Source: an uncultured Lachnospiraceae bacterium | GTDB lineage: Bacteria > Bacillota > Clostridia > Oscillospirales > CAG-272 | Assembly: GCA_964430755.1 (NCBI GenBank) | Contig: CAYSFT010000001.1 | Span: forward strand, 31,358-95,357 | Length of the DNA: 64,000 nt | Direction: 5' to 3' | Shown: positions 4,810 to 59,607 of the stretch, one piece after another | Layout of the letters: every line of letters starts with the position of its first letter | How positions within the stretch are numbered: position 1 is the first letter of the stretch | Position numbers and translations under genes: made by a program | The notes under the pieces: model-generated | Seen by the model: only the letters and a program-made list of their open reading frames with translations | What the model was told of the DNA's origin: nothing | The model's database searches: none

Positions 4810-5940
4810 TTATAAGTTTTTGTTTTTAAAATACTGAAAATATCCGCATTTTATCATGCCGTTGTAAAGCGTGCGTACCTTATCGGCACGGCGACCGTAC
4901 AAACGCTCAAAATCGGGAACGGACGTCAGAATATAGATCTGCCACGGCGCAAGACGCGCAAAACAGCGTCCCATAGCACGGTACAACGCCTCAACCTCAC
5001 GCATATCGGATAGACGCTCACCGTACGGTGGATTGCAAACTATCGTTGCGCGCCTATCAGCTTTAACGATCTGCGTTGCATCACGTTCGAAGCATTTTAT
5101 GTGCGCGCCCATATCGGCACGCTTGATGTTCGCGCGTGCAAGATCGACCATGTGCGGATCAATATCGCTTGCATAAACCTCAAAATCGGTGTCACGCTTA
5201 AAGCTCTCTGCTTCCTCACGTGCATCCTTCCAAATCTTTTCGGGTATGTCGTAAAACTCCTCTGCCGCGAAATTACGTCCGAGTCCGGGCGCAGTACCTG
5301 TCATCATCATAGCAGCCTCAATAGCGATCGTACCCGAGCCGCAAAACGGATCCCACAAAAGCACCTCATCGCGCGGACGTGACAGCTTGACCATCGCCGC
5401 CGCAAGGGTTTCGCGAAGCGGAGCAACACCTGCCGCAGGACGGTATCCGCGCTTGTGCAGTGCAACTCCGGAGGTATCAATCATAAGCGTTGCAGTGTCC
5501 TTTAAAATGAAAAACTCAACCTGATATTTAACACCCTCTTCCTTGAACCATGAAACTCCGTATTCGCCGGACAAGCGTTCAACGATCGCCTTTTTGACGA
5601 TACTCTGACAGTCGGGTATACTCGTCAGTGCCGATTTGATGCTGTGACCTTTAACGGGAAATGCATCATCCTCTGCGATCCATGCTTCCCAAGGAAGTGA
5701 GTTTGTTCCGTCGAATAACTCCGTAAATGTCGCGGCACGGAAGCTTCCCATTTTTATATAAAGTCGCTCTGCAAAACGCAGGTTTATGTTACAGCGCGCA
5801 ATTGCCGCCATATCGCCGCGAAATGTAACGCGCCCGTCAATTGTTTCTATACGCTCGTAACCGAGGGCATCAATCTCCTCGCCGAGCAATGCCTCAAGCC
5901 CGAAAAGGCAGGTGGCAACGTATTCATATTTGGTGGTCAT
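4810..5940 (-). CDS. THUMP-domain class I SAM-dependent RNA methyltransferase (RlmL/YpsC-like)
   Basis: N-terminal THUMP-like region, SAM motif I DPFCGSGTIAIEAA and catalytic NPPYGERL. Confidence 0.8.
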   Translation of the reverse strand: MTTKYEYVATCLFGLEALLGEEIDALGYERIETIDGRVTFRGDMAAIARCNINLRFAERLYIKMGSFRAATFTELFDGTNSLPWEAWIAEDDAFPVKGHSIKSALTSIPDCQSIVKKAIVERLSGEYGVSWFKEEGVKYQVEFFILKDTATLMIDTSGVALHKRGYRPAAGVAPLRETLAAAMVKLSRPRDEVLLWDPFCGSGTIAIEAAMMMTGTAPGLGRNFAAEEFYDIPEKIWKDAREEAESFKRDTDFEVYASDIDPHMVDLARANIKRADMGAHIKCFERDATQIVKADRRATIVCNPPYGERLSDMREVEALYRAMGRCFARLAPWQIYILTSVPDFERLYGRRADKVRTLYNGMIKCGYFQYFKNKNL

Positions 5941-7535: not shown

Positions 7536-9351
7536 AATAATATGCGCGTCAGTATTGCTTTCACTGTTGACGCTCGCATCATGTCAAAATAAAACCGATG
7601 CAGACAATGCCATGCCCGGTGTCATAACGCTGAGCAAAAGCCTCACGATCACCGATGAGGGCACATATACGCTAAGTGGCACACTTGAGGACGGGCAGAT
7701 AACCGTTAACGCCGACAAAAACGCAAAAATCGAAATTATCCTTGACGGCGTTGACATAACCTCACAAAAAAGTGCACCGATCTATATAAAAGAAGCCGAC
7801 AAGGTGATACTCACTCTCGCCGACGGCAGTATCAATTCACTAACGAACACCGACGGATATGCAGCCATTGACGACAACAATATCGACGCGGTAATATTTT
7901 CTAAAGCAGATCTCGACATAAAAGGCGGAGGTGAACTTCACGTAAGTGCAAACGAGGGAAACGGCATCACCTCAAAGGATGATCTCGTGCTTGACGGCTG
8001 CAATATAACAGTCAAAGCAGGCAATCACGCGCTTGAAGCAAACGATCTTGTATCAATTTCAGGCTGTACGCTTGACCTGACCGCCGTTAAGGATGCAATT
8101 CACAGCGAAAACGAGGACGACACCACACTCGGCAATATAGAAATCATCTCAACAACAATAAACGCTTCTTCTCAAGGCGACGGAATTGATGCCGGCGGAT
8201 ATATCATGATAGATAACTCAACCGCAGATATAACCGCAAATGAAAAAGGCATCGTTGCGGCAGGAAAGCTTTCGATAAGCGAATGTTCAATGAAAATCAC
8301 CGCTGTTGATGACGCGCTCCATTCAAACGGCAGCCTTTTAATAAACGGCGGAGATTATGAGCTCAAAAGTGAGGATGACGGTATCCATGCCGACATGAAC
8401 GTTCGTATAAACAGCGGCGATATAACCGTCACAAACGCCTATGAGGGCATCGAGGGACAGACAGTTGATATTGCCGGCGGCAACATTTATCTCAACACAA
8501 GCGATGACGGAATCAATGCAGCCGGCGGAAATGATCAGAGCGGCTTTGGCGGCGGGGGCGATATGTTTGCCGTTGACGAAAATGCTTATGTCGTCATCTC
8601 GGGCGGTAAGATAGTAATAAACGCAAACGGTGACGGAATCGACTCAAACGGCAGACTGACCGTAACAGGCGGAGAGCTTTACATCTGGGGACCTACCTCC
8701 GGAGCAAACGGCGCACTCGATTATGCAAGCGAAGCAACAGTCGAGGGTGGTATAGTGGTTGCTGTCGGTTCAGTCGGAATGTCGCAGAATTTCACAAGCA
8801 GCTCAACTCAATGCTCATTTATGCTAAACTTAAACGGCAATGAAAAAGAAGATATTACAGTTTCAGATGGAGATGGCAATATTATAATTACGTTCACTCC
8901 GGAAAAAAAGTTTTCAAGCGTACTCGTCAGCCATCCGGATTTTGCGCTTAATGAAACCTACACCATAGCATCCGGCGAAACCTCACAAACCGTTGAATTT
9001 ACCGCCACCATTGTCGGCGGCAGCTTCGGAGATTTCGGAGGCTTCGGCGACTTCGGCGGAGGCGGCTTCAGAGGCGGACGAGGCGAACGTCCGAACGGAG
9101 GCTTTGAAACAAACGAGGACGGATCCATCCCCGTAATGCCCGAAATGCCTGATGGCGGCAATATGCCGACACCGCCCGACATGGGCGAATGGCAGGAGAA
9201 GGGAGAAAGGCCTGAAATGCCCGAGGGTGGATTCAATTTTGATGGCGGCTTCCCCGGTGATATGACACCGCCGGACTTTGAAAATATGCCGGGTATGCCG
9301 CAAAAGCCTGATGAGGAAACAACATCCGAGGAAACCGACCACAATGTCTGA
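7525..9351 (+). CDS. Lipoprotein with Cthe_2159-like beta-helix carbohydrate-binding domain and a low-complexity C-terminal tail
   Basis: Signal peptide with lipobox LLTLASC. The body consists of degenerate repeats (...DAIHSEN..., ...DGIDAGG..., ...DALHSNG..., ...DGIHADM..., ...DGINAAGG..., ...DGIDSNG...). It overlaps the upstream gene by 11 nt. Confidence 0.65.
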   Translation: MRFKIICASVLLSLLTLASCQNKTDADNAMPGVITLSKSLTITDEGTYTLSGTLEDGQITVNADKNAKIEIILDGVDITSQKSAPIYIKEADKVILTLADGSINSLTNTDGYAAIDDNNIDAVIFSKADLDIKGGGELHVSANEGNGITSKDDLVLDGCNITVKAGNHALEANDLVSISGCTLDLTAVKDAIHSENEDDTTLGNIEIISTTINASSQGDGIDAGGYIMIDNSTADITANEKGIVAAGKLSISECSMKITAVDDALHSNGSLLINGGDYELKSEDDGIHADMNVRINSGDITVTNAYEGIEGQTVDIAGGNIYLNTSDDGINAAGGNDQSGFGGGGDMFAVDENAYVVISGGKIVINANGDGIDSNGRLTVTGGELYIWGPTSGANGALDYASEATVEGGIVVAVGSVGMSQNFTSSSTQCSFMLNLNGNEKEDITVSDGDGNIIITFTPEKKFSSVLVSHPDFALNETYTIASGETSQTVEFTATIVGGSFGDFGGFGDFGGGGFRGGRGERPNGGFETNEDGSIPVMPEMPDGGNMPTPPDMGEWQEKGERPEMPEGGFNFDGGFPGDMTPPDFENMPGMPQKPDEETTSEETDHNV

Positions 9352-9391
9352 TAAATAAGAAAAAGCCGTAACAGTGCATATTACAGCATCG

Positions 9392-10171
9392 TTACGGTTT
9401 ATTTCTGTATTTTAACGGGGAGACACCCATTCTCTTTTTGAAGAGTCTTGAAAAATAAGTATAATTAGGTATTCCGACCGATGTGGCGATCGTTGAGACG
9501 CTTTCATCACTCTCTCGAAGAAGAGCCGCAGCCTTGTGGATGCGTCTTCTGCTTATATATTCATTAACAGTACATTCAAAATAAGAGTGAAAAGCCTTGT
9601 AAAGCGAATTTCTTGAAACATACAGATAGTTGCAAAGCTGATCAATTGAAAGATCGGAAGCCAGATTCTTGTCAATATATTCGAGCGCTCTGACAATAAC
9701 GTCATCACAGTCAACCTCAATTGCACTATCGAAAATTATATATGATATCAGATTAATGAGGTTTGCCATCTGTTTATCGGAAAGAGAGCCCATCATCGCA
9801 TACTGAGGATCGTTTTCGGAATCCCCGATAACAACATCATTGTTTGGCCTTACGCGGCCTATCATTATAATTCCGACAACTGTGTGATTCTTGATAACGG
9901 GAACGGCTGTGTCAAGCAGTCCTGCGTGGCAGATATGTGAAACGGGACGCTTTTCTTTCATACAGCGGCTGATAAGATCCATATCTGAGCAGCTGCACAA
10001 TGCACGTCCTTCGGCAGTTTCCTGCACCTGCGTACAAATAATATCGGTTTGTCTTATTTGCTTGTATAAATAGTTACTGTGCGTATCCGTAAAACCCATG
10101 CTGAGTTCAGTCAGACCGTAAAGATTGTCTATTATCGCTTTTATCTTTTCAACGTCATATCTTATATTCAT
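9392..10171 (-). CDS. AraC-family transcriptional regulator with N-terminal PocR-type sensor domain
   Basis: HICHAGLLDTAVPV (PocR-like) and a C-terminal AraC double HTH (...SRNSLYKAFHSYF...STIATSVGIPNYTYFSRLFKKRMGVSPLKYR). ATG at 10171 is preceded by a GGGGGTGG RBS. Confidence 0.75.
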   Translation of the reverse strand: MNIRYDVEKIKAIIDNLYGLTELSMGFTDTHSNYLYKQIRQTDIICTQVQETAEGRALCSCSDMDLISRCMKEKRPVSHICHAGLLDTAVPVIKNHTVVGIIMIGRVRPNNDVVIGDSENDPQYAMMGSLSDKQMANLINLISYIIFDSAIEVDCDDVIVRALEYIDKNLASDLSIDQLCNYLYVSRNSLYKAFHSYFECTVNEYISRRRIHKAAALLRESDESVSTIATSVGIPNYTYFSRLFKKRMGVSPLKYRNKP

Positions 10172-10358
10172 CCGCAGCCACCCCCTTTGCATAATGATAC
10201 TATAAACTTTTCAAATTGTCAAGATGTTTTTTTGTTTTTTTGCACACCGGGAAGAAAAGGCAAAAAACAGTGAAGATTTGTCTATTGTAATTCGCGTCAA
10301 GTTGTGATATAATAAAATTTAGATACAATTTTGAACCCATGGCAAAGGAGAAAAAAAC

Positions 10359-11231
10359 ATGAATTTTACAGCAGCTCTATGCATCCTGCTAATAACTATA
10401 ACCACATCAATTCAAAATATATTAAAAAAGCAATACGGCAAACGAAAAAACAGCAGCAGCGTATACATTTTCAGCTCACTGACGGTTTTCAGTGCATTGG
10501 CAGTCTTTTTCATAAGAGGACTTATCACAAACACGCTGAGCTTTGACATAGGAATTCTTCCCTATGCGATTATATTCGCAACCGCATATTGTGCGGCAGC
10601 CATCTTCAATCTGATCGCAATTCAATGCGGCTCGCTTTCACTGACTTCCCTGATCGTTTCATACTCACTGATGATACCAACCCTTTACGGCTTGATATTT
10701 AACGGCGATCAGGTTAATGAGTTCTTTTACATAGGTCTTGCATTCCTGCTTCTCAGCCTCTTATTTGTTAACAGAACCTCCGGCGGAGACGTTAAAATAA
10801 CATTAAAGTGGCTTATCTGCGTTATAATTGCTTTCGTCGGAAACGGCATCTGCTCAACAGTACAGCCCGAGCAAAGTAAAATATTCGAAAACAAATATGA
10901 TGATACCTTTATGGCGATCGCGCTTGCGATAGTTTTCATAGTACTCCTCGTTTTTGCACTTATTAAGGACAGAAAAATCTTCCTCCCGACGGTAAAAACG
11001 AACGCACACTTGATGGTGCTCTGCGGTCTTTCAAACGCTGTTGCAAATCTCCTTGTTATGGCGGCGACAGGTCTCGGCGTTAATAAATCGCTCATGTTCC
11101 CGCTTATCAGCGCAGGCGGAATCGTCATCGCATGGATAGTGTCGGTGTTCCTTTACAAGGAAAAGTTAAGTAAAAAACAGCACCTCGGTCTTGCGCTCGG
11201 CGTTATCGCGATTGTGTTCCTCAATTTGTAA
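10359..11231 (+). CDS. Multi-pass membrane transporter, DMT/EamA-like
   Basis: About 10 predicted TM helices with a two-fold internal organisation and an AAAGGAG RBS. The family call is from topology and composition only. Confidence 0.5.
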   Translation: MNFTAALCILLITITTSIQNILKKQYGKRKNSSSVYIFSSLTVFSALAVFFIRGLITNTLSFDIGILPYAIIFATAYCAAAIFNLIAIQCGSLSLTSLIVSYSLMIPTLYGLIFNGDQVNEFFYIGLAFLLLSLLFVNRTSGGDVKITLKWLICVIIAFVGNGICSTVQPEQSKIFENKYDDTFMAIALAIVFIVLLVFALIKDRKIFLPTVKTNAHLMVLCGLSNAVANLLVMAATGLGVNKSLMFPLISAGGIVIAWIVSVFLYKEKLSKKQHLGLALGVIAIVFLNL

Positions 11232-11247
11232 TAGTATAAAGCATAAT

Positions 11248-11287
11248 CCCCTGCTCCGTTTTTGTGAAGCAGGGGAAATTTTTGTTT
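11248..11287 (+). terminator. Rho-independent terminator after the DMT-like gene
   Basis: CCCCTGCT (11248-11255) pairs with AGCAGGGG (11268-11275), followed by AAATTTTTGTTT. Confidence 0.7.
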
Positions 11288-12803
11288 AGTCGATGCTCTT
11301 CATTGTGGGGAACAAGAGCACGTCACGGATTGCGGCAGAGTCTGTGAACAACATACACATTCTGTCAATACCAAATCCGATACCGCCTGTGGGTGGCATA
11401 CCGATCTCAAGTGCATTAAGGAAGTCCTCATCAGTGTGGTTAGCTTCCTCATCGCCCTTTGCGAACTGTTCTTCCTGCGCCTTGAATCTCTCGCGCTGGT
11501 CAATCGGGTCGTTAAGCTCGGAATAAGCGTTAGCCATCTCCCAACCGTTCATGAAGAACTCGAAACGCTCAACATACTCGGGATTATCGGGCTTCTTCTT
11601 GGTAAGCGGCGAAATTTCAACCGGATGATCCATAAGGAAGGTCGGCTGAATGAGATGATGCTCAACAAACTCCTCAAAGAAGAGGTTGAGAATGTCACCC
11701 TTGGTGTGGCGATCCTCGTAGTGAACGCCCTTTTCGTCTGCAACCTTGCGTGCTTCTTCGAGCGTGTGGATATTGCTGAAGTCTACATCTGCATACTTCT
11801 TAACAGCGTCAACCATTGTGATACGCTCAAACGGCTTACCGAGGTCCATTTCAACGCCGTTATAAGTGATCTTGGTCGTACCAAGCACTTCTTGTGCTAC
11901 AAAGCGGTACATATTCTCGGTGAGATCCATCATGCCGTGATAATCGGTGTAAGCCTGATAAAGCTCCATCAGCGTAAATTCAGGATTATGACGGGTGTCA
12001 AGTCCCTCATTACGGAAAACACGTCCGATCTCGTAAACGCGCTCAAGTCCGCCAACGATAAGACGCTTTAAGTATAATTCAAGCGAAATACGAAGCTTAA
12101 AATCCTCGTCGAGAGCGTTGAAGTGAGTTTCAAAAGGTCTTGCAGCCGCACCGCCCGCATTGGAAACGAGCATGGGAGTTTCAACCTCCATGAAGCCCTG
12201 TGAATCGAGGTAACGGCGGATTGTGCTTATAATCTTGGAGCGCTTGACGAATGTATCGCGCGATTCCATATTTGTGATAAGGTCAATATAACGCTGACGG
12301 TAACGAGTGTCGGTATTGGTAAGACCGTGATACTTCTCGGGAAGAATCTGGAGACTCTTTGAAAGGAGTGTCACGCTCTTTGCATGAACCGAGATTTCAC
12401 CTGTCTTTGTTGTGAAAACAGTACCGACAACACCGATAATATCACCGATATCGAGCTTTTTGAAGCCTTTGTATTCTTCCTCGCCGATATCATCACGTGC
12501 AACATAGCACTGAATGTTACCCTTGAGATCGAGCACGTTACAGAACGATGCCTTACCCATAACGCGCTTGGACATCATACGTCCTGCGATGGTAACATCC
12601 TTGCCCTCAAACTCGGCGTAATTTTCCTTTATATCGGTTGTGTGGTGTGTAACGTCATATTTAGTTATAACGAAGGGATCGTTTCCCTGTGCCTGAAGCT
12701 CAGCCAGCTTGTCGCGGCGAACCTGCAGGAGCTGATTTAATTCTTTTTCACTCATGGGAGCTGCTTCTGTTGCCGCCTGAGTGTTTCTTTCGTTTTCTGC
12801 CAT
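11286..12803 (-). CDS. lysS: Lysine--tRNA ligase (class II)
   Basis: Full-length match to the LysS pattern: OB-fold N-terminus, [25 protein letters not shown] and GIGFGIDRM. Confidence 0.95.
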
Positions 12804-55413: not shown

Positions 55414-56502
55414 ATGTCAAACGAAATCATGACACGTGTAAGCGCTATCGCTCCCGTACTGCGTATGCTCAGCAAAGAGGATAAGTGCTGCACAGTTAAA
55501 TTTTCAACCGAATACTGCGAAAAATGTACTGCGGGTGCACTCAAAATCACCGATGAGAGCATCGACGGTATCAAAGCCGCATTTGATGCTTACGTAAAAG
55601 CAAACGGAGCAAAGCCGACCGCCGCATTTGTTGACGGGCTCGGTATATTCAGAATCAACGTCACCGAAGCAGCAGGCAAGCGTCTTGACGGCAAGATCGC
55701 TATCGTTACAGGAAGCGCACAGGGCTTTGGTAAGGGTATCGCAGAGCATATGGCTCGCGAGGGCGCACACGTTGTTGTTGCAGATATGAACGCAGACGGC
55801 GCAAAGGCTACCGCTGATGAGCTTTGTGCGGCATACGGTGCAGATGCGGCTATTTCGGTCGGCGCAAACGTATCCGATGAAGCAAGCGTTGAAGCAATGG
55901 TTGCCTCTTGCGTTGCAGAGTTCGGCGGACTTGACGTTTTCGTTAATAATGCAGGTATCGTTCGCGCAGGAAGCCTCGAAGAAATGACCAAGGCAAACTT
56001 CGAGCTTGTTGCCGCTGTAAACTACACTGCATACTTCCTCTGCGCTAAATACGCTTCTGCAGTTATGAAGCTCCAGCGCAAGGTCTGCCCCGATTATCTT
56101 TCCGATATCATCGAGATCAACTCGAAGTCGGGACTCGAGGGCTCAAACAAGAACTTCGCATATGCCGGCAGTAAGTTCGGCGGAATCGGTCTTACCGAAT
56201 CGTTCGCACTCGAGCTCGCACCGTTCGGCATCAAGGTTAATGCAATCTGCCCCGGTAACTTCTTAAACGGTCCTCTGTGGAGCGATCCCGAAAAGGGACT
56301 TTTCGTTCAGTATCTCAACGCAGGCAAGGTTCCCGGCGCAAAGACAATTGACGATGTGCGCCGCTTCTATGAAGCAAAGGTACCGCTGAACCGCGGATGC
56401 GAGATCAAGGACGTTGCTCGTGCGATCCTTTACATAATCGAGCAGGAATACGAAACCGGCCAGGCAATTCCCGTAACCGGCGGACAGGTAATGTTAAAGT
56501 AA
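55414..56502 (+). CDS. SDR-family oxidoreductase with ~95-aa N-terminal extension
   Basis: TGSAQGFG (the TGxxxGxG variant), NNAG and YAGSK (YxxxK). The SDR core starts at about aa 95, and the extension carries CC-x12-C-x2-C. Confidence 0.75.
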   Translation: MSNEIMTRVSAIAPVLRMLSKEDKCCTVKFSTEYCEKCTAGALKITDESIDGIKAAFDAYVKANGAKPTAAFVDGLGIFRINVTEAAGKRLDGKIAIVTGSAQGFGKGIAEHMAREGAHVVVADMNADGAKATADELCAAYGADAAISVGANVSDEASVEAMVASCVAEFGGLDVFVNNAGIVRAGSLEEMTKANFELVAAVNYTAYFLCAKYASAVMKLQRKVCPDYLSDIIEINSKSGLEGSNKNFAYAGSKFGGIGLTESFALELAPFGIKVNAICPGNFLNGPLWSDPEKGLFVQYLNAGKVPGAKTIDDVRRFYEAKVPLNRGCEIKDVARAILYIIEQEYETGQAIPVTGGQVMLK

Positions 56503-56527
56503 TCGCAAACGAAAGGACAAAGAAAAA

Positions 56528-57748
56528 ATGTCTATCGAAAATCTTATAGCACAGCTTAACGCCGACACTAAGGAAGAGCGTCTTGCGGCACTTCGCGAGA
56601 TCAAGGCACTCACCGATAAGGGCGAGCTTCCGACTCCCGAGAAGACGGCGTTTGTAAACAATCATATTCACACAACATATTCATTCTCACCCTACTCGCC
56701 CACAAAGGCACTTTACCTCGCATGGCAGAACGGACTCGGTACAGCCGGAATCATGGACCACGATTCCGTATCCGGTGCAAAGGAGTTCATCGAAGCAGGT
56801 GAGATCATAGGTATGCCCGTAACCGTCGGTGCCGAATGCCGTATCAACATGAGCGGTACAGCACTCAACGGCAAGCGTATCAACAACCCCGACCAGATAT
56901 CCGTCGCATATGCGGCAATTCACGGTATTCCCCATCAGATGATCGACCGTTTCGACGCTTTCTTCGAGGGTTACCGCCGTCACCGTAACCTGCGCAATCT
57001 CAAGATGTGCAGACGTATCAACGAGATCATGGCTCCGTACGGCGTTGCAATTGACTTCAAAGCAGACGTACTTCCCCTCTCAAATTCGTGGGAAGGCGGC
57101 TCGGTCACAGAGCGTCACGTGCTGTTTGCACTCGCAAAGAAGCTGACTGCACGTTTCACCACACCTGCAGAGGTGCTTGCTTTCCTTGAAAATGACATGG
57201 GACTCGCTCTTTCGGCAAAGGTACGCTCCCAGATCGCAGACGGCGACAAGACTCCGCAGTTCTATGAGTATGACATCCTCGGTGCACTCAAGAGTAATCT
57301 CGTCGAAAAAATTTACATCGACGCAACCGACGAGTGCCCCGATGTTACCGAATACATCGCGCTCTGCCGCGAGACCGGTGCAATAAGTGCATACGCTTAC
57401 CTTGGCGACGTCGGCGATTCGGTAACGGGTGACAAGAAGGCACAGAAGTTTGAGGACGATTATCTTGATCTGCTTATCTCCGAGCTGAAGCGTCTCGGCT
57501 TCAACGCCATCACATATATGCCCTCGCGCAACACACGTGAACAGCTCGAGCGTATTATAAAGCTCTGCAACGACAACGGATTCTTCCAGATAAGCGGCGA
57601 GGACATCAACTCCCCCCGTCAGTCGTTCATCTGTAAGGCAATGGCAGACCCGATGTTCGCGCATCTCACCGATGCTACATACGCGCTTATCGCTCACGAA
57701 GAAGCAGCAAGCAAGGACATCACCAAGGCGATGTTCTGGGGTAAATAA
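56528..57748 (+). CDS. PHP-domain (polymerase/histidinol phosphatase-like) metal-dependent phosphoesterase
   Basis: NNHIHTTYSFSPYSP (HxH motif) and GIMDHDS; 406 aa. Confidence 0.7.
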   Translation: MSIENLIAQLNADTKEERLAALREIKALTDKGELPTPEKTAFVNNHIHTTYSFSPYSPTKALYLAWQNGLGTAGIMDHDSVSGAKEFIEAGEIIGMPVTVGAECRINMSGTALNGKRINNPDQISVAYAAIHGIPHQMIDRFDAFFEGYRRHRNLRNLKMCRRINEIMAPYGVAIDFKADVLPLSNSWEGGSVTERHVLFALAKKLTARFTTPAEVLAFLENDMGLALSAKVRSQIADGDKTPQFYEYDILGALKSNLVEKIYIDATDECPDVTEYIALCRETGAISAYAYLGDVGDSVTGDKKAQKFEDDYLDLLISELKRLGFNAITYMPSRNTREQLERIIKLCNDNGFFQISGEDINSPRQSFICKAMADPMFAHLTDATYALIAHEEAASKDITKAMFWGK

Positions 57749-57828: not shown

Positions 57829-58029
57829 TCATTCAAAAAAATCACTTACAGAGCAGGAAAGAATTTCGGCAAGCTCTGGCAATAACGTAATATCAGGGTA
57901 GCATTCGCTTCTTTCCCATTTTGATATTGCTTGCGGTGAAACGCATAGTATCTCTCCAAATTCTTCTTGCGTCAAATTGTTCTTTTGACGGTATTTTTTT
58001 ATTTTATCCGCAATAGTGATTTTCTTCAT
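57829..58029 (-). CDS. XRE-family (Cro/C1-type) helix-turn-helix protein, 66 aa
   Basis: NNLTQEEFGEILCVSPQAISKWERSECYPD is a canonical HTH_3 pattern. ATGA overlap with the upstream gene. Confidence 0.85.
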   Translation of the reverse strand: MKKITIADKIKKYRQKNNLTQEEFGEILCVSPQAISKWERSECYPDITLLPELAEILSCSVSDFFE

Positions 58030-58565
58030 CGTTGTTTAACCAACCAATATGTTTCATTTTCACGATTCATAATACCGCAAGCAATTATTTCACGGCGAAT
58101 AGTACAATGATCTTCGTGGAATTGATGTATAATATCATTAACTTCTTTTTCGGTGTAGACACGCTCTTTCTCAAAGCATTTTGCAATTTCGCCAAGAACG
58201 ATTTCACGCTTTTTTCGTTGAGACGGGATACGAGTCAGTTTTCCGTATTCGAAGAAATGCGAAATGACTTCTTTCTTATATTTCTCATCGTCATTTACAG
58301 CTGATTCTTCTTTTTTTATCAGCTCATAAAGCGGCTTATCGAATATCTCGCGATTGAGCGAATATATAATATAAAATTGTGAACGAGAGCAGTTTACCAC
58401 ATTAGCCGCCTCCATCTTTTTTAAGTGATAGCAGATTGTCGCAGGCGTAAGTGAAAGCTCGCAAGCGATTTTCTCAACATATGAATCCTCATGCATGAGA
58501 ATATTGAGAATGTCAAGACGGGTTTCGTCCGCAATCAGTTTTAATAGTTCAAGCTTTTGCTTCAC
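58026..58565 (-). CDS. ArsR-type wHTH fused to DUF2087 domain
   Basis: The N-terminus LKLIADETRLDILNIL...IACELSLTPATICYHLKKM is ArsR-like. The C-terminus IPSQRKKREIVLGEIAKCFE..YTEKEVNDIIHQFHEDHCTIRREII is the DUF2087 pattern. The GTG start overlaps the upstream stop (GTGA). Confidence 0.75.
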   Translation of the reverse strand: MKQKLELLKLIADETRLDILNILMHEDSYVEKIACELSLTPATICYHLKKMEAANVVNCSRSQFYIIYSLNREIFDKPLYELIKKEESAVNDDEKYKKEVISHFFEYGKLTRIPSQRKKREIVLGEIAKCFEKERVYTEKEVNDIIHQFHEDHCTIRREIIACGIMNRENETYWLVKQR

Positions 58566-58717
58566 TCATTCACTTCCTTTCGCTTTTGCCATGCTTCGGC
58601 AAGACAAGCTTTTGCGAAGCGGAAACCGCCTATACGCTCGTTGAGTTCAATCGCTTCCCATTTGTACTCTCTCGCCAATGCATCCTCTATCAAAGTGTAA
58701 AATACAGAATCAAACAT
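58562..58717 (-). CDS. Hypothetical 51-aa protein
   Basis: MFDSVFYTLIEDALAREYKWEAIELNERIGGFRFAKACLAEAWQKRKEVNE. A GAGGAG RBS sits 7 nt upstream, and the ATG overlaps the upstream stop (ATGTTTGA). No homology was recognised. Confidence 0.5.
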   Translation of the reverse strand: MFDSVFYTLIEDALAREYKWEAIELNERIGGFRFAKACLAEAWQKRKEVNE

Positions 58718-59219
58718 TTTCATTCTCCTCAAACATATGCGGATAAACAGCATTTTCTATCCGCCACGCTTCCCACACACCAAGCATATTCAAGACAGCA
58801 CCTATTTTGATTTTTAATTCAAATACGTTTTTCGTATCTCCTGCCGCTTCCGCCTGCTCAAGTTCAGAGAAATAATTGCATAAAATCTGATTACGTATAA
58901 ATATTTCCGCCTGCATAGCAGCTGTTAATTTTTTTTGCTCATCACTACTTAATCTTTGAAAAACATCATTCAATTTCGGATAATTGCAAAGATATTTTTT
59001 CATAATTTTAAATCTCATGTTTAAAACATCTTCTCTTTTTCCGATTGTATTGAACAAATGCCCTGCATTGCCGCACAGATTGTACATTCCAAATTCGATT
59101 TGTACGGCTTTTTTCTCAGTCGCCTTATCTTTGTCAATCATATCTAATCTGCTTTTGCATTCACTGCACTTCTCTCTTGTGAGATCTACGAGCGCCTTAT
59201 CAATTTCAAGATGTGTCAT
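58710..59219 (-). CDS. Hypothetical 169-aa protein, probably all-alpha
   Basis: ATG at 59219 has an AAAGGAG RBS 5 nt upstream. It is the first gene of a four-gene overlapping cassette, with no recognisable motif. Confidence 0.6.
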   Translation of the reverse strand: MTHLEIDKALVDLTREKCSECKSRLDMIDKDKATEKKAVQIEFGMYNLCGNAGHLFNTIGKREDVLNMRFKIMKKYLCNYPKLNDVFQRLSSDEQKKLTAAMQAEIFIRNQILCNYFSELEQAEAAGDTKNVFELKIKIGAVLNMLGVWEAWRIENAVYPHMFEENENV

Positions 59220-59267
59220 TTGTTCTCCTTTCATAGTGGCGTATACTTCTTTGTGATCACACTTATA

Positions 59268-59296: not shown

Positions 59297-59306
59297 ATTG
59301 ATTCGA

Positions 59307-59338
59307 TGATTTTCTAATCATTCTACCAATGGTAGAAA
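59307..59338 (-). promoter_or_regulatory. Two adjacent palindromes just upstream of the -35 (candidate operators)
   Basis: ATGATT-TTCT-AATCAT (59307-59322) and TTCTACC-AAT-GGTAGAA (59322-59338). Confidence 0.45.
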
Positions 59339-59403: not shown

Positions 59404-59607
59404 TTATTCCTTTTTATCAAGCAAGCTGTAAATACACAAAATCAAGCCTGCCACAAAAGCAATCGGACCGCCCCAAGATAAAAGATAATTCTCTCCTATA
59501 ACCGCAATATCCGGTGCCGCAAATAAGATTTGATGCGACAAATATTCAGCACAAGAAGCGATAATTCCACACACCATTAGCGCAGAACCAAATATCATCT
59601 TTTTCAT
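59404..59607 (-). CDS. Small (67 aa) two-TM membrane protein
   Basis: An AGGAGA RBS and two hydrophobic helices. It lies 26 nt downstream of pfp. Confidence 0.55.
   Translation of the reverse strand: MKKMIFGSALMVCGIIASCAEYLSHQILFAAPDIAVIGENYLLSWGGPIAFVAGLILCIYSLLDKKE

Follow-up and report, generated by a model that had tools for sequence, protein, structure and literature searches.

The stretch analysed here (the window) comprises 64,000 nucleotides of an uncultured Lachnospiraceae bacterium (assembly GCA_964430755.1, contig CAYSFT010000001.1, positions 31,358 to 95,357), and the element under study is a cassette of four small minus-strand genes, g1 to g4, at positions 57829-59219. All four open reading frames (ORFs) are present as a sequence-only reading of the stretch had described them, and successive genes are chained by short overlaps that can be read directly from the sequence: ATGTTTGA between g1 and g2 (58717-58710), GTGA between g2 and g3 (58565-58562), and ATGA between g3 and g4 (58029-58026). 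For g1, an ATG at 59234 offers an alternative start (174 aa), and the ribosome-binding site (RBS) AAAGGAG and all homologs favour 59219. The assignment of the last two products to an ArsR winged helix fused to DUF2087 and to a Cro/C1-type helix-turn-helix (HTH) protein holds, with Pfam matches above the cut-offs for both. The first two products had been described as free of recognizable motifs, and indeed Pfam, PADLOC, PHROGs and NCBIfam contain no match to g1 or to the 51-aa product of g2; as had also been stated, the cassette fits no named system, and its first two proteins stand outside any described family. On balance, we lean towards reading the locus as one copy, decayed in part, of an operon that is autoregulated, restricted to a clade and so far undescribed.

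Table 1. Genes and regulatory features of the cassette, in window coordinates
Feature	Position	Strand	Description
g1	58710-59219	minus	169 aa; predicted all-helical bundle protein, orphan family
g2 remnant	58562-58717	minus	51 aa
g3	58026-58565	minus	179 aa; ArsR/SmtB-type winged helix fused to DUF2087
g4	57829-58029	minus	66 aa; XRE/Cro-C1 HTH
Sigma-A-type promoter	59295-59267	minus	TTGACA-17 nt-TATAAT; 12/12 consensus, the only 12/12 match in the region
Upstream terminator	59397-59366	minus	13-pair stem followed by T-run; ends the neighbouring 67-aa membrane-protein gene, outside the operon, whose upstream limit it marks
Downstream hairpin	57821-57767		Between g4 and the convergent gene; -23.9 kcal/mol, z = -5.1, followed by U-rich tract
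IR1	59336-59322	minus	Dyad TCTACCA-T-TGGTAGA with invariant ACC...GGT core; candidate operator, kept in 67 aligned regions
TGATTAGAA	59312-59320	minus	Upstream GATTAGA half-site copy; invariant or nearly invariant across loci; repeated in the same orientation within the promoter spacer
IR2 left arm, ATCGAATCAAT	59297-59307	minus	Conserved across loci
IR2 right arm and second GATTAGA copy, AGTGATTAGAT	59286-59276	minus	Inside the promoter spacer
TGTGATCACA palindrome	59252-59261	minus	At the predicted transcription start, after a conserved AT(C/A)AGTGT

The same arrangement recurs in other genomes. A word-index search of 5.8 billion proteins retrieved 11 relatives of g1, the nearest of them 62% identical, and their contigs carry the same four genes in the same order, with a second gene of 155-177 aa. 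For this full-length g2, at least 432 relatives were retrieved, and they too lie in the operon. A scan with one genome per species found the operon g1-g2-ArsR/DUF2087-XRE in 78 species-level genomes, and the carriers are all uncultured Clostridia, Oscillospiraceae or Eubacteriales, represented by metagenome-assembled genomes (MAGs) from animal hindguts, mostly of ruminants. The canonical order g1-g2-g3-g4 is present in 53 of the 78 non-redundant loci; in about 9 the conserved promoter stands directly before g2 and g1 is missing, in 4 the two genes are fused in one ORF, and in 2 g1 is followed by a tandem g2-g2 fusion. An exhaustive HMMER search with the g1 profile returned only 127 clusters among 1.84 billion representatives, with fusions in both orders among them (g1-g2 in 5, g2-g1 in 2).

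Against this family, the second gene of the window proves to be truncated internally. The first ~17 residues of its 51-aa product align to the N terminus of full-length g2 and the last ~33 to the C terminus of this 155-177-aa protein, and the ~110 codons in between are missing; the frame is kept, as are the RBS and the overlaps with the genes on either side. Most of the residues conserved in g2 fall in the lost segment, namely D29, K35/K36, the YKCAKYRYA motif, D105, and the LYY of DxxLYY; D132, which is 99% conserved in g2, is a lysine in the remnant. The short g2 is not an artefact of a single assembly, because an assembly from an independent read set (L014) shows the same 51-aa form. The other g2 sequences are all full length (80/80), and a second suspected case of decay, in L053, was dismissed, its g2 being intact and only cut by the contig end. 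Judged from these alignments, the 51-aa gene, which had been taken for a small protein of its own, is an in-frame deletion remnant of a g2 of ~155-177 aa and the only such copy found, and only g1 and the regulatory circuit are intact in this genome.

The cassette possesses the perfect consensus promoter and the bracketing terminators that the sequence-only reading had assigned to it (Table 1). Of 35 loci, 31 have the same 12/12 promoter ~45 nt ahead of their first gene, and it can be seen in about 70. The hairpin downstream of g4 is an intrinsic terminator that probably acts in both directions, and hairpins of unrelated sequence follow g4 in other loci as well. The promoter is embedded in a regulatory block of ~85 nt, in which 53 columns are at least 90% conserved in an alignment of 67 regulatory regions, and conservation among loci starts only at the T-run just before IR1. 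The outer arm positions 16/28 and 17/27 of IR1 covary in a compensatory fashion, with 85.9% of cells paired and a score that none of 500 shuffles reaches. IR2 (59307-59276) is a dyad centred on the -35 box, described by the pattern ATCnAAnnnnT-N9-11-AnTGATTnGA, which matches on both strands. At the predicted transcription start, ATCAGTGT is kept in most loci and the full palindrome of Table 1 in a subset. The block as a whole is far more conserved than the proteins encoded behind it (37-78% identity), whose fourfold sites are saturated.

A few IR1-like sites adjoin cassettes in other loci, an observation that is anecdotal. Downstream of g4 in L032 (~5240-5345) and in L081, a long hairpin with an IR1-like sequence in each arm precedes a promoter-like site and a gene for a 224-aa protein with N-terminal membrane helices, and this hairpin and gene may be an extra target of the cassette regulators. 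In L057 (~5330-5401), the beginning of the regulatory block is repeated just after g4, with an IR1-like sequence and GATTGGA, and this second copy is cut by the contig end.

Both regulators are well defined at the level of their domains. In g3, residues 13-58 match HTH_5 (1.7e-10, 41.1 bits against a cut-off of 22) and residues 109-174 match positions 1-68 of the 69 in the DUF2087 profile (PF09860; 2.6e-25, 88.8 bits against a cut-off of 22.4). The PDB relatives of residues 4-90 include CzrA, NolR and CadC. The alpha-3 region of g3 contains no CxC motif as read from the sequence, and the protein scores below the NCBIfam cut-offs for every named ArsR subfamily. In g4, residues 10-64 cover the HTH_3 profile from end to end (positions 1-55 of 55; 5e-14, 52.5 bits against a cut-off of 23), so that it consists of the HTH domain alone, and it is the last gene in nearly all loci. 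With median pairwise identities of 37% for g1, 47% for g2, 78% for g3 and 56% for g4, g3 is the most conserved protein of the operon.

Because a strong promoter is buried in dyad sites and the operon ends with two DNA-binding proteins, tight autorepression of this promoter by g3 and g4 is very likely. The cassette is compact and self-contained, and the earlier description of it as a self-regulated module is very probably right as well, with a conserved operator block and two encoded regulators to support it. As to which protein binds where, the chances are about even that g4 occupies IR1 and g3 the GATTAGA/IR2 sites. The placement of g4 on IR1 is suggested by its recognition helix, where a residue that is either Q or F tracks the IR1 arm variant, and by a paralog in L038 that has IR1 without GATTAGA; the high conservation of g3 fits the invariance of the GATTAGA/IR2 sites. 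This paralog (87 aa, L038 5646-6074) is a stand-alone g4 gene downstream of the cassette, with its own perfect promoter after an IR1-like palindrome, and membrane-protein genes follow it. A further set of XRE-type proteins, of 347-371 aa and with an N-terminal HTH and a long helical C-terminal part, is encoded 1-2 kb upstream of the cassette in L018, L019, L041, L058, L059 and L060; they differ from one another and seem to belong outside the operon.

The two remaining families, g1 and g2, are known from their predicted structures and conservation patterns. AlphaFold2 (AF2) models of g1 (predicted local distance difference test score, pLDDT, 84.6) and of full-length g2 (pLDDT 92.3) consist of helices only and have a common topology, in which two long helices are followed by a connector with short helices and two more long helices. 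Searches of Pfam, NCBIfam and PADLOC with full-length g2 and with the fusions gave no family match, apart from one sub-threshold fragment of JetA for full-length g2 in PADLOC (E = 0.0026); comparison of the g2 profile with PDB sequences gave chance matches only, and a Foldseek search of g2 against BFVD gave nothing better than E = 0.05. Aligned with hhalign from deep profiles (72 and 80 sequences), g1 and g2 are colinear, with a local P of 1.6e-4 and a global P of 3.7e-5. This colinear alignment and the shared predicted topology make it probable that the two are ancient paralogs. Since their modules are fused in both orders and g2 also occurs as a tandem g2-g2, it is likely that g1 and g2 work together physically, as a complex or a pair. 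Conservation is distributed unequally between them: g2 keeps E17, D29, K43, C44, R48, D105, D132, E134, E137, E140, R141 and C151, a dense set of polar residues with two cysteines, whereas only four positions of g1 are conserved in at least 85% of sequences. By this measure, g2 appears to be the functional core, and g1 a degenerate partner. Both are acidic (median isoelectric point, pI, 5.5-5.9). Two motifs considered for g2 were rejected: a HEPN-like Rx4-6H occurs as R64-x4-H69 in one sequence, with R64 unconserved and no family match, and the conserved residues form no ExxH pairs of the ferritin-like kind, again with no family match.

Several loci depart from the common layout in the coding part. 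L018 and L019 (2988-4495) have g1 followed by a 335-aa protein of two tandem g2 domains, and one MAG (JAZQXS01; L065 and L090) carries two cassettes, one of them with a g1-g2 fusion and an additional copy of g1. In L050 (4390-4812), L051 and L091 (~290-620), an extra gene with a CxxCxxCC motif, a putative zinc/iron chelator (PF03692, 27 bits against a cut-off of 23), lies between g2 and g3, and g1 is absent from L050 and L051. In L004 (4875-6001), a gene for a GNAT acetyltransferase is placed between the conserved promoter and g1; a table of Parvimonas micra genes lists a DUF2087 gene beside a GNAT gene (PMC11076991).

The AT-richness of the cassette, noted earlier from spot counts, is borne out by a sliding-window analysis, in which the drop at the cassette is the lowest in the window. 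Its G+C content is 0.373, against a window mean of 0.464 (standard deviation 0.030), and values as low occur in only 7 of 1253 sliding 1391-bp windows, all 7 overlapping the cassette locus. The four lowest values of G+C at third codon positions (GC3) among 61 ORFs belong to g4, g1, g3 and the adjacent 67-aa ORF (0.33-0.37, with a median of 0.50 and a next lowest value of 0.42), and the G+C of the cassette is reduced at all three codon positions. The same bias is found across the family. Cassette and flank G+C are correlated over 37 species (r = 0.69, slope 0.92, offset -0.05), and in 35 of 39 loci the flanks exceed the cassette in G+C. Because the cassette tracks the G+C of its host and is the lower of the two in nearly all of these loci, the bias is intrinsic to the unit, and the low G+C is a lasting trait of an old, resident module. 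In this window the deviation reaches -12 points, compared with a family norm of -5, which is the extreme of the family range; this keeps in play a lateral arrival in this lineage, which may have come from a lower-G+C relative, and no close donor was found in the databases searched.

The divergence between copies points in the same direction. Fourfold-degenerate sites are saturated (~0.32 identity) except in pairs whose g3 proteins share 90% identity or more, and among the fetched cassette loci the closest g3 reaches 83%. As these sites are saturated, the conservation of the proteins reflects purifying selection, and saturation together with the tracking of host G+C favours, on sequence grounds, an old resident module over a recent import. 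The unit is conserved and its location is not: flanking genes are common to 32 of 110 locus pairs with g3 at least 90% identical, and to 9 of 896 pairs at 80-90%. A universal conservation of the four genes at this position, raised earlier as the sign of a core function, is therefore not what is seen, the flanks differing between loci. The neighbours of cassettes are ordinary genes (for instance pfp, LeuRS, LepA, Obg and sporulation genes). No relatives of g1 or g2 were found in 2.9 million viral contigs, 50,697 phage records or 72,556 plasmids; no integrase, tRNA, terminal repeats or conserved downstream element was found for the cassette; no conserved sequence or repeat extends across loci beyond IR1 and the g4 stop; and Rfam and tRNA scans of the window were empty.

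The immediate surroundings in the window contribute a few further observations. The 67-aa ORF next to the cassette (59404-59607, minus strand) encodes a predicted small membrane protein and belongs to the same AT-rich stretch (GC3 0.37); it was rejected as a fifth gene of the cassette, as a terminator of its own follows it and none of the other cassettes has a homolog nearby. On the other side lie, on the plus strand (55414-57748), a gene of the SDR type (adh_short) and a gene for a 406-aa protein, a pair that is adjacent in most of 80 metagenome loci (L093-L172). The 406-aa protein, previously labelled PHP, has no Pfam match at E <= 1e-5. Among the relatives of this flank in the 80 metagenome loci, none has the cassette or pfp downstream, and the nearest is 73% identical, too distant for a true presence/absence test. 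A second AT-rich patch of the window (9300-11300, G+C < 0.40) contains an AraC-type regulator (9392-10192, GC3 0.42) and a multi-pass membrane protein (10359-11231).

Taken together, an inducible, self-repressed sensor or response module is favoured over a toxin-antitoxin or defence function. In such a module, a sigma-A promoter of maximal intrinsic strength would be embedded in an operator array of ~85 bp made up of IR1, IR2 flanking the -35 box, the GATTAGA repeats and the start-site element. The two regulators would bind this array and keep the promoter shut, g4 on IR1 and g3 on GATTAGA/IR2, until a signal lifts repression and the four proteins are made in a fixed ratio through the overlapping stop and start codons. 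The helical pair g1-g2 would be either the regulated output or a sensor that talks to the regulators, and the strongly conserved acidic, basic and tyrosine residues of the g2 pocket, with its two cysteines, would make it a likely ligand-, metal- or redox-binding core. It is possible, though rather doubtful, that the signal is metal- or redox-related, for which there are weak hints in the ArsR-family regulator, the conserved cysteines of g2 and the CxxCxxCC insert in three loci, a thiol signal being hinted at in the same way. An equally tentative idea is that g1-g2 form a heteromeric ligand or redox sensor acting through the DUF2087 domain of the ArsR-type regulator, which would be an undescribed kind of switch. 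In loci that have lost g1 or g2, the regulators g3 and g4 persist and are strongly conserved, which suggests that they have a role in their own right.

A number of results weigh against this reading. The g1-g2 match is borderline even with deep profiles (hhalign probability 51%), and with shallow profiles the two looked unrelated (probability 0.14). Foldseek searches of g1 and g2 against the PDB gave nothing better than E = 0.07, generic bundles only, with none below 0.1 for g1, and neither protein has a detectable homolog of known function in the libraries searched. The covariation of the Q/F residue with IR1 is confounded by two deep clades, and the comparison that suggests the g4-IR1 assignment thus comes down to one paralog and a clade-confounded covariation. 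No extra copies of the operators occur within the 64-kb window, which leaves a wider regulon unproven. The ligand positions of CzrA lie in alpha-5, and the alignment of g3 to CzrA ends at chain residue 83, before this metal site. BtmL, the only ArsR-DUF2087 protein that has been studied, is not metal-responsive, and its binding to DNA has not been demonstrated (PMC7113386). Finally, the loss of g1 in ~9 loci and the gutting of g2 here have the same look as the decay of a toxin gene.

This last point belongs to the case for a toxin-antitoxin or abortive-infection module, in which a new helical toxin, g2 alone or together with g1, would be neutralized or repressed by g3 and g4, and the copy in the window would have decayed, losing the toxin and keeping the antitoxin-regulators. 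An operon that is compact and coupled in translation and that, like higBA and mqsRA, puts its HTH proteins at the end, the weak resemblance of g4 to the HTH domains of MqsA, HipB and PezA, the fast evolution of g1 and g2 beside a conserved regulator, the variable location and a strong promoter that must stay repressed would all suit such a module, as would the missing genes just mentioned. However, no toxin or defence family in Pfam, NCBIfam or PADLOC is hit by g1, by full-length g2 or by the fusions, and in PADLOC the cassette proteins obtain generic HTH matches only (Csa3/CasR wHTH, RmrA HTH and C-protein). There is no neutralizing domain in g4, which is HTH_3 end to end, and g3 carries DUF2087 as its additional domain; g1 and g2 are acidic, unlike most toxins; the strongest constraint falls on g3, which is atypical of antitoxins; and the module was not found on phages, plasmids or viral contigs and has housekeeping neighbours instead of defence islands. 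The toxin-antitoxin or defence character proposed by the sequence-only reading is thus improbable. Less probable still is its other proposal, a recently acquired islet or phage remnant whose low G+C would be that of unadapted foreign DNA. The lowest G+C and GC3 of the window, a deviation beyond the family norm, a position that differs between species, relatives of the SDR/PHP-like pair without the cassette, and an AT-rich 67-aa neighbour with no counterpart near other cassettes could all be explained in this way, but the nearest g1 and g3 are distant, synonymous sites between copies are saturated, and the same bias follows the host in species after species, with 78 species-level genomes carrying the operon. 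Integrase, tRNA, repeats and conserved ends are likewise missing from what was found, as are matches in viral, phage and plasmid collections, and the PHP relatives (<=73% identical) offer no true presence/absence test.

A stress-protection operon is also unlikely, although somewhat less so than either of these. Here g1 and g2 would be four-helix bundles of the ferritin or YciF kind that counter metal, oxidative or thiol stress; ArsR-type control of a strong promoter would yield them in bulk, and neither would act back on the regulators. The two long helical hairpins with a long connector at ~165 aa are as expected for ferritin-like proteins, and the top TM-scores among PDB chains (0.37-0.40) are those of YciF and Dps, yet these matches are not significant (E about 1), there is no Pfam ferritin-like match, and the conserved residues include no ExxH di-iron motifs. 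The ArsR/SmtB-family regulator, the conserved cysteines and acidic residues of g2, the metal-chelating CxxCxxCC gene inserted in three loci and a perfect promoter suited to high output would agree with protection against stress, but g3 has no alignable metal site, and the putative cargo is dispensable in several genomes in which the regulators persist. The inducible, self-repressed module described above remains the favoured reading.

If the sensor switch is real, it would provide the first mechanistic handle on DUF2087, a domain present in thousands of bacterial regulators, and this genome would be a natural sensor knock-out. If the operon is what it seems to be, g1 and g2 stand for two protein families whose structures are predicted with confidence and which have no described family or structural neighbour, confined to uncultured Clostridia of the herbivore gut. 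The operon would then be a very clear natural case of near-invariant regulatory DNA amid coding sequence diverged to saturation, and its conserved block would give ready-made operator sites for ArsR-DUF2087 and XRE regulators. For annotation, the 51-aa gene should be labelled a remnant, and the AT-rich signature should not be taken as recent foreign DNA.

Four kinds of known systems invite comparison. Like the models of g1 and g2, the ferritin-like and YciF (DUF892) four-helix bundles are ~165 aa long and all-helical, with a long connector between hairpins; they differ in that the matches of g1 and g2 to them are not significant, with no di-iron ligand pattern and no sequence-family match. The XRE controllers, among them the C proteins of restriction-modification systems, MqsA, HigA and HipB, compare with g4 as a small HTH_3 protein that stands alone and closes a tightly coupled operon, with a dyad operator upstream of a strong promoter, whereas the cassette has neither restriction-modification genes nor a toxin family, and g4 has no neutralizing domain and stands beside a second, unrelated regulator. 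In the DUF2087 literature, BtmL was the only informative case found, and no other studied protein comes closer. This modulator from the bottromycin cluster of Streptomyces scabies (20.5 kDa) combines an ArsR-like winged helix with DUF2087, lacks the canonical ArsR metal ligands and acts by a cryptic mechanism (PMC7113386). It differs from g3 in acting in an actinobacterial cluster for a RiPP, a peptide made by the ribosome and modified after translation, as a positive modulator of one gene, and in having neither an XRE partner nor proteins of the g1/g2 type nor a conserved operator array; the relatedness of the two is known from their shared Pfam domains alone, and they agree in two-domain architecture, in similar size and in being encoded in the cluster that is modulated. 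The fourth kind are the autorepressors of the ArsR/SmtB family (CzrA, NolR, CadC and SdpR). Unlike them, g3 ceases to align before the alpha-5 metal site and has a C-terminal DUF2087 instead, but its N-terminal 70-90 residues align with theirs, and like them it sits in the operon that it probably represses through dyad operators overlapping the promoter.

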